Shown in pieces: positions 1 to 2,393 of a DNA stretch of 2,393 bases; the stretch's first letter is position 1, and each line of letters begins with the position of its first letter. The stretch comes from Naegleria gruberi (taxonomy: Eukaryota). A model generated the notes under the pieces. The model had not been told where the DNA came from. It saw nothing but the letters and a program-made list of their open reading frames with translations, and did not search any database. Location of the stretch: NCBI GenBank assembly GCA_000004985.1, contig GG739265.1, one strand, 5' to 3'. The position numbers and the translations under genes are program-made.

Positions 1-565
1 ATCTACATTATTGTTAATAATTAAATTGTTATAAGGTGCAAAAAACTGTAGATCAGTTCAAACTCAAAAGGTTCTCTCCTATATCTAAATCAACCTTTCC
101 CAATTATAGTCAATTCAGATGCTTCTCCTCAAGGATATGGCGTCCACTCCTCAAACACTGTTGTTATAGGAAGATCTCACACCAACGATCATATCGATTC
201 GAAAGAAATGATGGCAATTCTTCAATTCTTCAGAAGCAAGATCACAAAAGCTCTATCTTGAAATAGGAAGGGCCAATTCAACTGCCCTCTCATACATAAG
301 AAAAAGATATGGAACTTTCGAACCTCGCTCAAATAGCAAGGAAAATTTGGAAATAGAATGTGGCTTGAGAATTGCAAAAGTAATCTACATTCCCTCAGAG
401 AAAAATTACAGACAAACTGAGCGGTTTAAGTGATTAGAAATCATCACCAGAATTGATAAGTATGGTAGAAAAAGAATTCAGAACCACATCATCGACAGAT
501 TTGCAATATCAGAGTCAGCAATAAATAAACCAATGTTAGATATTAGTTGTTCCATTTATTTTTAA
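1..565 (+). mobile_element. Older, decayed DIRS-like retrotransposon fragment: RNase H remnant plus a possible trace of the start of the recombinase region. Oriented convergently to the minus-strand copy.
   Basis: RNase H homology 85..433 as above. After the TGA at 431 the same frame continues as 'LEIITRIDKYGRKRIQNHIIDRFAISESAINKPMLDISCSIYF*'. This weakly resembles 'ELINLVEDR' at the minus copy's RH end and 'AYRRTIHGIIQQIRES' at its YR-frame start. Upstream 1..84 has stops in all frames. Base composition changes abruptly to about 80% A+T after about 565. Confidence 0.45.
85..433 (+). pseudogene. Degenerate second copy of the retrotransposon RNase H domain. It carries a frameshift, a nonsense codon and substitutions at catalytic residues.
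   Basis: Hand translation of the plus-strand frame with codons at 100,103,... gives 'LNQPFPIIVNSDASPQGYGVHSSNTVVIGRSHTNDHIDSKEMMAILQFFRSKITKALS*' (stop 259..261). This aligns with the minus copy 'AVIINSDTTLSGFAIHSSNLVIVGQF...SSINVKELKAIYQFFKKASQQKL'. After a +1 shift near 232-236 the next frame gives 'ARSQKLYLEIGRANSTALSYIRKRYGTFEPRSNSKENLEIECGLRIAKVIYIPSEKNYRQTERFK*' (TGA 431..433). This aligns with 'ASQQKLFPPGTHFEIRGDNQPSLVYVRKGYGSIEHLSSIARDLWTILKLKDWHISKTVYIPSEVNNIADRLSRL'. By eye, identity is about 45-55% over about 110 aa. The catalytic D of 'IRGDNQ' is A ('IGRANS') and the D of 'ADRLSR' is E ('QTERFK'). Confidence 0.7.
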
Positions 566-984
566 ACTTATCACTACATCAACCTCCATGAATCTAGTTG
601 TCTATTTCTTGTTGTAAGAGTTTTTCTTTGTTTTAATAAACAACTATCAAACTCTACTTTTACTACTTCTAATAACAGTGTTTTTGTAATATTTTTACAA
701 AGTTTGTTCTTTCTTTGAATTCATTTTCTTTGGATTTACCATAAAGATTATTACTTCCAATCAATAATCTTCATAATGATAACACCAACTTTAGCAGATT
801 TTTAAAAATTAATCGTTTTTTATATTTTATATTACTTTGTTAAGCTTTTCTAAATTTCAAATCGATAAAATTTTTGAAAATTTATTTGTTACATTGCAAA
901 TTAATAAAAACAAGATTGAGAACAAGTAATTATACTAATGGGTATTAAAGCTCAGAGACTGTTTCACCTTTAAGGTGATTCAGC

Positions 985-1032
985 CTTGAGACCTGCTTTA
1001 ATGGATATAAATCTTTATTAGCAGGTCCCGAG
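985..1032. repeat. Imperfect inverted repeat (stem-loop): 13-nt arms 985..997 and 1020..1032 with a perfect 8-bp core gacctgct/agcaggtc (990..997 / 1020..1027) and a 22-nt AT-rich loop.
   Basis: Read directly. The reverse complement of 990..997 'gacctgct' is 'agcaggtc', found at 1020..1027. The outer extension ccttga/ctcggg pairs with one mismatch and one T:G. It lies in a locally GC-richer island (940..1035) inside the AT-rich spacer. A second small palindrome 'tcacctt-t-aaggtga' lies at 964..978. Confidence 0.6.
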
Positions 1033-1144
1033 ATTAATAAATATGGCTCTTATAAAAAAACTTATCAATAGTATTAGTAAAGATAAGAAAAAAATTAGGA
1101 GATGCGAGTAGGAGGCATAAACTAAAATGAAATTAAAATAAAAA

Positions 1145-1165
1145 AGATATCATTTGATGATATCT
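1145..1165. repeat. Perfect palindrome agatatcat-ttg-atgatatct (9-bp arms, 3-nt spacer, contains two GATATC sites). It sits 23 nt past the stop of the truncated recombinase ORF. On the minus strand it is followed by the T-rich run ttttttattttaatttcatttt.
   Basis: Read directly. The reverse complement of 1145..1153 equals 1157..1165. Low GC content (2 of 9 pairs). Confidence 0.6.
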
Positions 1166-1187
1166 GAAACCTCACTTCAACGAACAC

Positions 1188-1817
1188 TTACCAAGAATCA
1201 TTGAGAGCGTAAAAAAGGTTGAATAAGGTCATAGGACAGTATTTCTTTTCACCACAGTAAGGTTCGATTGGGGTTGGATTGTCAATCATGAAAAAATCAG
1301 TTTTGTGGTCTGATAGATCAAATGTAAACCAATTTTTCTTTGGATCATTTGGTTTCACAGAAGACCAAGAGAGATCGCAAAGATCACCAGGTCTTACTAG
1401 AAGTCTGAAACCAATAACCAGTACAGCAGTGGTTAAATTATAGGTATATTCATCATGTGATGAAATCGAATCAATATATGATTTAATATCATAAGAGGAG
1501 AAACCATTACGTTTGAGTTTAGAACGATCCACAATATAGTAGGCTTTAGTAAGACCTTTCTTAACTCTTGAAAAACTACTATCTACATTGAGTTGCCAAC
1601 CTTCCACGTCTGCAAAGAATTGAATGGCTGGTTTCAATGTATTAATATCATAACTTTTCTTATTAATAGAAAGGTATGCAGCAAAACATTCGAGTGCATA
1701 TGGGTTTGTCTTTGGAATATTCTGAATTACCAGGAACCATTGAAAAGCACCATAAAGTTTAGAATATTTCTTAATTGTGGAATCAGTAAGGGAGATTGAC
1801 AGGCCAAAATTTCTCAT
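1188..1817 (-). CDS. DIRS/Ngaro-type tyrosine recombinase, C-terminally truncated. It has the N-terminal core-binding/SAM-like domain and the first part of the catalytic domain only. It lacks the HxxR box and the catalytic Tyr, so it is likely non-functional.
   Basis: ATG at 1817..1815 and stop at TAA 1190..1188. The frame is also open upstream to 1967 (stop TAG at 1968..1970 on the minus strand), giving a 20-nt overlap with the end of the RNase H ORF. N-terminal segment 'STIKKYSKLYGAFQWF...ALECFAAYLSINKKSYDINTLKPAIQFF' fits the YR core-binding domain pattern (ST...Y...W..F ... FL..L ... S.STI....A). 'VIGFRLLVRPGDLCDL' fits box I with the conserved Arg. 'FDLSDHKTDFF' fits the beta-hairpin Lys region. 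'KKYCPMTLFNLFYAL' fits the ..CPV..L..YL segment that normally precedes the HxxR box. No HxxR or Tyr follows. All three minus-strand frames below 1188 are stop-rich and AT-rich. Confidence 0.68.
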   Translation of the reverse strand: MRNFGLSISLTDSTIKKYSKLYGAFQWFLVIQNIPKTNPYALECFAAYLSINKKSYDINTLKPAIQFFADVEGWQLNVDSSFSRVKKGLTKAYYIVDRSKLKRNGFSSYDIKSYIDSISSHDEYTYNLTTAVLVIGFRLLVRPGDLCDLSWSSVKPNDPKKNWFTFDLSDHKTDFFMIDNPTPIEPYCGEKKYCPMTLFNLFYALNDSW

Positions 1818-1944
1818 TGATAATAAAGTTGACCGTTCACTTGAGCTACCAGAAAGGTGTGATTCTCGAATTTGTTGAATAATTCCGTGGATGGTTCTAC
1901 GATAAGCAGTTTTCTTGGAACACTTTGAATTTTTACGGATATCT

Positions 1945-2393
1945 TTAACAGAATTGGGTACGGTCTTCTACCAAATTTATCAATTCTTGAGAAGATTTCC
2001 TATCTCCCAGTCTGCTTAGTCTGTCGGCAATGTTGTTTACTTCTGATGGAATGTACACTGTTTTGGAAATGTGCCAATCTTTCAACTTGAGAATGGTCCA
2101 CAAGTCTCTTGCTATTGATGAGAGGTGTTCTATTGAACCATAGCCTTTTCTTACATAAACTAAGGATGGTTGATTGTCTCCTCGGATCTCAAAGTGAGTT
2201 CCTGGAGGAAACAACTTCTGTTGGCTTGCTTTTTTGAAGAATTGATAGATTGCTTTCAATTCTTTCACGTTTATAGAGGATTCTTCTTGGAATTGACCCA
2301 CAATGACAAGATTTGATGAATGGATGGCGAATCCTGAGAGAGTTGTGTCTGAATTGATTATTACTGCTTTGGGAGATTCCAGTTCTAACCACG
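1945..2393 (-). CDS. Retrotransposon Pol fragment: RNase H domain (partial CDS; the N-terminus with reverse transcriptase lies beyond the window edge). The 'M' at 2301 in the ORF track is a GTG inside an open frame, not a real start.
   Basis: Hand translation of the minus strand shows the ORF2 frame stays open from 2391 down to the TAA at 1945..1947. The translation begins ...WLELESPKAVIINSDTTLSGFAIHSSNLVIVGQFQEESSINVKELKAIYQFF... The track's ...IRGDNQPSLVYVRKGYGSIEHL...DWHISKTVYIPSEVNNIADRLSRLGDRK... supplies the canonical RNase H landmarks. These are D in 'SDTT..G.GA' (motif DAS..G.GA), E in 'VKELKAI', D in 'IRGDNQ', and D in the C-terminal 'N..ADRLSR'. That last motif is typical of DIRS, Ty3/gypsy and BEL RNase H. 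Codon 2299..2301 is cac on the plus strand, i.e. GTG, so it is an alternative-start artefact of the ORF caller. Confidence 0.8.
   Translation of the reverse strand, partial: WLELESPKAVIINSDTTLSGFAIHSSNLVIVGQFQEESSINVKELKAIYQFFKKASQQKLFPPGTHFEIRGDNQPSLVYVRKGYGSIEHLSSIARDLWTILKLKDWHISKTVYIPSEVNNIADRLSRLGDRKSSQELINLVEDRTQFC

Follow-up and report, generated by a model that had tools for sequence, protein, structure and literature searches.

Intact DIRS elements are transcribed, their reverse transcriptase (RT) and RNase H make cDNA, and their terminal repeats let closed circular DNA form, a circle that the tyrosine recombinase (YR) inserts by site-specific recombination without target-site duplication. 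In the literature, the RT/RNase H of DIRS elements stands nearest to that of Ty3. DIRS1-like and PAT elements encode gag, a pol composed of RT, RNase H and methyltransferase (MT) domains, and YR, as do the intact members of the family described below, and an overlap of pol with YR is a DIRS1-like trait, the catalytic part of the recombinase lying in the non-overlapping 3' end (PMC3266345). Heteroloboseans, Naegleria gruberi included, are listed among the taxa with DIRS1-like elements (PMC3266345). The present analysis concerns a stretch of 2393 bases with 32.9% G+C, the whole of which is called the window. This window is very probably repetitive DNA of a eukaryote, with a free-living heterolobosean amoeba as the most likely source, and contains two dead MT-bearing copies of DIRS1/PAT type. 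By reading frames and alignments, these are two broken DIRS-order retrotransposons in convergent orientation, with an AT-rich spacer between them.

On the minus strand, six-frame translation and the list of open reading frames (ORFs) reveal two long open frames, at 2391-1945 and 1964-1188. The longest open stretch of the window, at 259 codons, far exceeds chance expectation, as 1000 shuffles gave 81 codons on average and never more than 157. In the features listed below and throughout the text, L numbers designate fetched loci of relatives, mostly short metagenome contigs, and P numbers designate proteins of relatives.

1964-2393, minus strand: RNase H domain of pol, open to the right window edge, with 82-84% nucleotide identity to L002 and L005
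1962-1963, minus strand: internal deletion junction, the same break between two blastn segments against L002, L005, L008, L004 and L003
1814-1961, minus strand: C-terminal remnant of an MT-like domain (47 residues), read by translation and near-identical to the C-terminus of P0054
1233-1964, minus strand: N-terminal (core-binding) half of YR, 84% identical to P0001 and 47% to N. gruberi XP_002672924.1
1035-1232, minus strand: unrelated sequence of 198 nt with 73% A+T, blastn homology to L002 and L005 stopping at 1233
887-1034, minus strand: 3' tail of the minus-strand element, from alignment A3, motif search and weak colinear blastn matches to L002, L005 and L010
526-886, no strand: AT-rich spacer, 77.8% A+T
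1-525, plus strand: degraded second DIRS-like element, from translation, amino-acid and DNA alignment, blastn and motifs

The RNase H frame of the minus-strand copy has 148 codons, from 2391 to 1945, running off the window edge, and its translation is WLELESPKAVIINSDTT...YIPSEVNNIADRLSRLGDRKSSQELINLVEDRTQFC. A reading made from the letters alone, hereafter the sequence-only reading, had based its assignment on the C-terminal RNase H motif YIPSE.N..ADRLSR, and this motif is indeed present within the frame (YIPSEVNNIADRLSR, 2055-2011, minus strand). Moreover, the four acidic positions of RNase H are found in the window, namely D in NSDTT (2355-2341), E in VKELK (2268-2254), D in RGDNQ (2184-2170) and D in IADRL (2031-2017), and this D, E, D, D set is kept across alignment A4 of the relatives. 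The domain shows 69-76% amino-acid identity to P0003 and P0005, which carry RVT_1 upstream, and a ratio of nonsynonymous to synonymous divergence (dN/dS) of 0.05-0.10 with respect to relatives. In L004, L005, L008, P0005 and P0053 the Pfam domain RVT_1 lies directly upstream of the same RNase H, while the window ends inside this domain. Since the frame is open to the right edge, RT (and gag), if present, would therefore lie beyond the window. In the Protein Data Bank (PDB), the best matches to a profile of the RNase H relatives are the viral 'Enzymatic polyprotein' 8r0s and Ty3 RT/RNase H, the match to the latter (4ol8) extending to its last residues, and the RT/RNase H profile of the relatives also matches the RT/RNase H of caulimoviruses. 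Thus, an RNase H with its acidic residues and of Ty3/Gypsy-related type, a feature of the DIRS order, is found in the window. The GTG-initiated methionines in the ORF list are an artefact of translation table 11, as had been suspected, and the 118-residue GTG ORF at 1945-2301 is internal to the RNase H frame.

Downstream of RNase H, the minus-strand copy has suffered a deletion. Against L002, blastn aligns window 2391-1964 with positions 1001-1428 (82%) and window 1961-1233 with positions 1654-2382 (85%), about 225 nt, or 75 MT codons (L002 1429-1653), being deleted at 1963/1962. Because the deletion shifts the pol frame, the RNase H frame ends at a stop at 1947-1945, 16 nt beyond the junction. 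The surviving end of the MT domain reads YPILLKISVKIQSVPRKLLIVEPSTELFNKFENHTFLVAQVNGQLYYQ, followed by a stop, in a frame that differs from that of YR and overlaps it. An MT-like domain downstream of RNase H marks membership of the DIRS1-like and PAT superfamilies, and in the window it is represented by this 47-residue remnant. In the relatives, the MT domain matches Pfam Dam with 23-27 bits, just under the cut-off of 28.1. The stop of pol and the ATG of YR overlap as ATGA in the window.

YR has an open frame of 259 codons (1964-1188). The ATG that a gene caller would choose is at 1817, so that the listed ORF spans 1188-1817 (209 residues), with its final 15 codons within unrelated sequence. 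The extension of the frame upstream of this ATG to 1964 is conserved in N. gruberi; the YR frame and the MT remnant, read in different frames, have 148 nt in common, and the peptide that YR encodes in this stretch is kept in N. gruberi as well. An overlap of pol with YR, a trait of DIRS1-like and PAT elements, is thereby found in the window. The dN/dS of YR is 0.07-0.08 versus L002 and L005, and the domain belongs to the YR family of the element, a further feature of the DIRS order. The preserved half reaches up to and includes the first catalytic Arg (GFRLLVRPGDL); in alignment A2, the window YR ends just past the conserved KYCP, without GHSLRIG and the RY motif. Sequence 1035-1232 stands where L002 has 324 nt of the YR catalytic half, with HxxR and the Tyr nucleophile, and a tblastn search of the window with the last 107 residues of the YR of L002 gave no match (best E 1.3). 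Of the complete catalytic set (R...HxxR...Y), only the first Arg box was therefore found in the window. The possibility that 1232-1035 is a heavily mutated YR C-terminus, e.g., altered in the manner of repeat-induced point mutation, was considered and rejected, as no residual DNA or protein similarity is left. Within this replacing sequence there is a palindrome with a 9-bp stem at 1145-1165 (AGATATCAT-TTG-ATGATATCT), which may be a product of chance in AT-rich DNA.

The 3' tail of the minus-strand element retains three motifs on the minus strand, ATCTCGGGACCT at 1034-1023, TACCCATTAGTATAA at 944-930 and TTTGCAATGTAACA at 900-887. In L002, L005 and L008, ATCTCGGAACCT and TACCCATTAGTATAA stand directly 3' of the YR stop. 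The first two tail motifs (ATCTCGGnACCT / TACCCATTAGTATAA) are contiguous in these three loci and split in the window by a 78-nt insertion at 1022-945, perhaps a very small insertion of hairpin type or a sequence duplicated locally. Within it lies a perfect palindrome of 15 nt (TCACCTTTAAGGTGA, 964-978). An inverted repeat with arms of 8 bp (GACCTGCT...AGCAGGTC, 990-997 and 1020-1027) has its left arm in the insertion, and its right arm spans the insertion boundary 1022/1023. The true 3' boundary of the element probably lies somewhere within 526-886. The order of RNase H followed by YR that the sequence-only reading had recognized is real, although an MT remnant lies between the two, only half of YR is present, and a second RNase H on the plus strand had been missed.

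This second copy occupies 1-525 and comprises the end of the RT-RNase H linker, the RNase H domain and the first MT residues. It reads IIVNSDASPQGYG, IDSKEMMAI, IYIPSEKN (383-406), DKLSGLSD and IDRFAISESA (491-520, the start of MT), and is readable only across at least three frame changes and in-frame stops. Its third catalytic Asp is lost (EIGRANS, 260-280). The left window edge cuts one end of the fragment, which breaks off near 525 at the other. By blastn it is 68-78% identical to L004, L008 and L002, and its RNase H shares 40% amino-acid identity with that of the minus strand (E 1e-28). The plus-strand fragment is older than the minus-strand copy. Apart from the two RNase H copies, no long inverted matches occur within the window; an interpretation of these copies as inverted terminal repeats of a single element was rejected, as they are coding sequence with 40% protein identity and belong to different subfamilies.

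The contrast in base composition between coding and non-coding DNA, put at about 60% versus 80% A+T in the sequence-only reading, is roughly right and somewhat overstated, since the coding parts have 61-66% A+T, the spacer at 526-886 has 77.8%, and all non-coding DNA at 526-1187 has 74.6%. In the spacer there is neither an ORF of at least 60 residues nor an RNA gene, and none of the fetched loci resembles it. No tRNA was found in the window, and a Rfam scan of it gave nothing at gathering score, in agreement with the claim that prokaryotic RNA genes are missing; the Rfam matches to CRISPR-DR25, PrrF and UCA1, all far under their gathering scores, were set aside as chance. In addition, promoter-like sites in the window occur at shuffle expectation and terminator-like sites are absent. 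The absence of Shine-Dalgarno-spaced starts also holds: none precedes the YR ATG at 1817, and the single AGGAGG of the window (1110-1115), located 11 nt 5' of an ATG that opens the four-codon ORF MKLK (1110-1129), is a look-alike by chance. Considering the A+T richness, a ciliate code with TAA and TAG read as Gln was also entertained and rejected, because about 400 codons of the two minus-strand frames lack in-frame TAA and TAG, and because ORFs of 271, 645 and 302 residues in relatives are open and have normal ends under the standard code.

The identity of the family emerges from its relatives, since Pfam searches with the window's own ORFs gave only chance-level matches and a PDB sequence search with them gave nothing. 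The family was recovered only when 1.84 billion cluster representatives were searched exhaustively by HMMER, with the RNase H and YR of the window concatenated as the query. This yielded 49 hits, 11 of them below 1e-30, and sources were looked up for 30 of the 49. Close relatives have 82-85% nucleotide identity to the minus-strand copy, L002, L005, L008 and L004 covering a range of 72-85%. They encode gag, then RT-RNase H-MT, then YR (about 302 residues). In L004, gag has 271 residues and RT-RNase H-MT has 645, pol and YR overlap as ATGA, and L002, L005, L008, L009 and L010 agree with this gene set. A gag ORF lies upstream of pol in L004, L009, L006 and L010; a tblastn search of the window with the L004 gag found nothing, and its position would fall outside the window. 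In the YR of the relatives, Pfam Phage_integrase is matched at or under threshold in the C-terminal half, and a profile of the recombinases matches Cre in the PDB over the HxxR...Y region. A scan of metagenomes of the Joint Genome Institute (JGI) added only one further short contig. The assignment to a eukaryotic element of the DIRS order, proposed earlier from one motif and the gene order, is thus borne out by the gag, RT-RNase H-MT and YR of the intact relatives and by named relatives that are Heterolobosea. The window family is without a named record, within a well-known kind of eukaryotic retrotransposon.

Some further traits were observed in the relatives. In L002 (2704-2727), L005 (2795-2818) and L008 (3719-3742), the YR stop TAA is followed by six in-frame codons and a stop; the six codons read SRNLTH (SRNFTH in L008), the stop that follows is TAG in L002 and L005, and the codons match the ...NNTH C-terminus of the more distant P0008 and P0058. 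The TAA could thus be a young premature stop or a site of stop-codon readthrough. In L006 (1155-4382) and L001 (1303-3945), an open YR frame extends over the whole of pol in an alternative frame (ORFs of 1075 and 880 residues), an extreme form of the DIRS1-like overlap of pol with YR. Finally, L003 and L004 are 99.4% identical copies that diverge completely upstream of L004:113 / L003:454, which is probably the 5' boundary of the element at two insertion sites; the flank of L003 (1-453) contains an open frame without a Pfam match.

As regards the host, the lineage is inferred to be Heterolobosea, a relative of Naegleria and Willaertia. Four proteins among the 30 looked-up hits are named, and all four come from this group. 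N. gruberi XP_002672924.1 is 47% identical to YR over 209 residues (E 1e-68), in an alignment that starts 30 residues upstream of the YR ATG, i.e., in the part that overlaps pol; Willaertia magna KAL9658538.1 is 35% identical over RNase H; and the others are Naegleria fowleri XP_044569001.1 and Acrasis kona KAL0488065.1. Most of the remaining looked-up hits are unnamed proteins whose metagenome contigs are 1-7 kb long. The W. magna copy (L011, JBEGDK010000002.1) consists of pol and then YR and resides inside a 520-kb contig, at a local G+C content of 28%, with an ALG-type glycosyltransferase, SF3A3, tubulin and a Utp21-like protein among its neighbours; its pol is 39% identical to that of L004 in one uninterrupted segment. 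With the RT-RNase H-MT of a close relative as the query, the named hits came from insects, molluscs, coral, fishes, a frog and the tuatara, with no prokaryote among them. Beside the element of a distant relative, L001 carries at 5603-6700 (minus strand) a flanking gene with RCC1 repeats, teneurin-type EGF repeats and a C-terminal hydrophobic stretch, which looks like a eukaryotic (protist-like) surface protein with a membrane anchor and fits a eukaryotic host.

Several points weigh against an origin in Heterolobosea or limit its reach. The window contains no host gene, intron or rRNA, and its origin is therefore inferred from the element alone. Among named relatives, identity reaches only 47%, too little to point to a host genus, and the closest relatives of all (82-85% at the nucleotide level) sit on anonymous metagenome contigs of 1.6-4.3 kb without host context. 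Searches for the window itself were negative, an exact 40-mer of it being absent from genome, viral and metagenome contigs and an exact look-up of the 209-residue ORF product giving no match. Moreover, a word-indexed search of 5.8 billion proteins with RNase H missed the family, the look-ups being non-exhaustive, and a scan of GTDB (one representative genome per species, 185,579 bacterial and archaeal species, patterns followed by tblastn confirmation) used two short peptide patterns that divergent copies may escape. One alternative is another eukaryotic host with a related DIRS/PAT lineage, such as an AT-rich protist, an amoebozoan, a fungus or an invertebrate, possibly reached by horizontal transfer between eukaryotes. 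The low identity of the nearest named protein leaves room for it, as do the 19 of 49 hits without a look-up and the unnamed metagenome proteins that make up most of the rest; DIRS1-like elements have a patchy distribution that covers 61 eukaryote species (PMC3266345), and gag proteins with N-rich tails, as in L001 and L006, occur in amoebozoans too. However, all four named relatives of the window's own domains are heterolobosean, and the pol of metazoan DIRS elements reaches only about 28-30% identity to P0053, compared with 39% for the W. magna copy. Another eukaryotic host is therefore unlikely, and a heterolobosean amoeba is the preferred source.

Neither copy in this presumably amoebal DNA can transpose unaided. 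The minus-strand copy has lost 75 MT codons, with a pol frameshift, and the catalytic half of YR, and is incapable of encoding a functional pol or recombinase; the plus-strand copy is a frameshifted stump. For intact members of the family, the route described above for DIRS elements, from transcript to cDNA, circle and recombination, would apply by analogy. A minus-strand copy that still works, perhaps as a non-autonomous element, is improbable. It would account for two stop-free frames with dN/dS values of 0.05-0.10 versus relatives, for the intact catalytic residues of RNase H and for a 3' tail that keeps the conserved motifs of the family; nevertheless, the MT deletion has put pol out of frame, HxxR and the catalytic Tyr are missing from YR, and a low dN/dS reflects selection on the active lineages of the ancestors, not on the copy in the window. 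Synonymous changes make up by far the greater part of the differences between the minus-strand copy and L002 and L005 (dN/dS 0.05-0.10); this copy, now dead, therefore descends from a lineage that was under selection, i.e., active, until shortly before the damage.

Residence of these copies in a true prokaryote, for example in an endosymbiont of amoebae that had acquired host DNA by a transfer of DIRS sequence from eukaryote to prokaryote, is very improbable. The flanks of the window are unseen and nothing supports this residence positively, but it could draw on one metagenome-assembled genome (MAG) in GTDB that lists such a contig, and on the ATGA overlap of pol with YR, which superficially resembles prokaryotic translational coupling. 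That overlap, however, is common to the intact L002, L004 and L005 and lies within a longer conserved two-frame overlap. The contig, JAJNPV010000040.1 (L006, 'MAG: Ohtaekwangia sp. isolate MAG_016'), is the single relative that the GTDB scan recovered, with no second match in 185,579 species. It is 4418 bp long with about 37% G+C and consists of the element only, namely gag with an N-rich tail, RT, RNase H-MT and YR, without a bacterial gene, and is thus eukaryotic contamination in a reference MAG and not evidence of bacterial residence. Plasmid, phage and viral contig collections contained no relatives, and no relative was met beside prokaryotic genes in prokaryotic genomes, plasmids or phages. 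Moreover, two decayed copies facing each other across AT-rich filler have the look of eukaryotic repeat clusters, and the window has no Shine-Dalgarno site before the YR start, no RNA gene and no terminator-like site. Were the residence nevertheless true, the window would be a record of DIRS-type DNA transfer from a eukaryotic host into a bacterium. Still weaker is the idea that the window contains a retroelement of prokaryotes or phages (group II intron, retron or an RT of the diversity-generating retroelement type) beside a phage-type integrase, with a likeness to DIRS by chance. It can be dismissed, even though Cre and phage integrases are distant relatives of the YR family and Pfam is blank on the window's own ORFs, given that the RNase H of the relatives follows an RT of LTR-retrotransposon type and finds 8r0s and Ty3 RT/RNase H as its best PDB matches, that the relatives carry an MT domain and a gag ORF, and that phages and plasmids are without a match.

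If the window belongs to an assembly or bin labelled as prokaryotic, it is thus most likely mis-binned eukaryotic DNA. The sequence-only reading had already named contamination for such a case, and this continues to be the most likely explanation, with prokaryotic, plasmid, phage and viral sets empty save for the element-only MAG contig. The main value of the result lies in quality control, since a contig of this kind in a prokaryotic bin or a 'viral' set should be removed. The window family has already found its way into one representative MAG of GTDB (JAJNPV010000040.1) and into records labelled 'integrase'; the recombinases P0004 and P0058, on 2.1-kb contigs, bear this label in NCBI/IMG records. 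Moreover, a family of MT-bearing YR retrotransposons, apparently characteristic of heterolobosean amoebae, takes shape from the intact relatives in metagenomes, and this family, with end repeats that look PAT-like, could interest transposon taxonomists. The result has no bearing on an open biological question.

Among known systems, Ty3/Gypsy LTR retrotransposons have the RT/RNase H that is closest to that of the window family among solved structures, whereas the window family has YR in place of a DDE integrase and no protease. Ngaro and VIPER elements are retrotransposons that use YR, like the window family; unlike it, they are without an MT domain and usually without ORF overlaps (PMC3266345), both of which are seen in the window. 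DIRS-1 of Dictyostelium discoideum, the founder of the order, likewise has gag, YR and RT-RNase H-MT, with a YR frame that overlaps pol. However, it has inverted terminal repeats and internal complementary regions, none of which were found in the window, where the ends of the element could not be recognized, and no DIRS-1 protein appeared among the hits. Passages of two papers describe DIRS-1 copies as enriched in the heterochromatic centromeres of D. discoideum (PMC7192593, PMC3950715).

PAT-like elements, sisters of the DIRS1-like ones, have an MT-bearing pol followed by YR as well, and their ends carry direct repeats, as do those of distant relatives of the window, where direct repeats stand in place of inverted ones. 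The W. magna copy (L011, 9820-14743) has split direct repeats of the form A1...B1-A2...B2, in which 9820-9997 equals 14180-14357 at 99% and 14137-14182 equals 14698-14743 at 100%, and both ends of L009 carry a direct repeat of 246 bp (61-306 and 4079-4324, 97%). These end repeats are observed in distant relatives only, the contigs of the relatives with 82-85% identity ending too early. From these repeats, the termini of the relatives look PAT-like rather than DIRS1-like, while the MT-bearing elements of Naegleria are filed as DIRS1-like (PMC3266345), and the window family may belong to either group. The DIRS1-like elements of Heterolobosea share with the window the same YR family (47% identity over 209 residues, the pol-overlap part included) and an RNase H-MT block with 35% identity to W. 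magna, and the W. magna copy presents the same order of pol and then YR at a similarly low G+C content (28% versus 33%). At 35-47% identity, however, the window represents a different family from these heterolobosean elements, in a copy that has been deleted and truncated.

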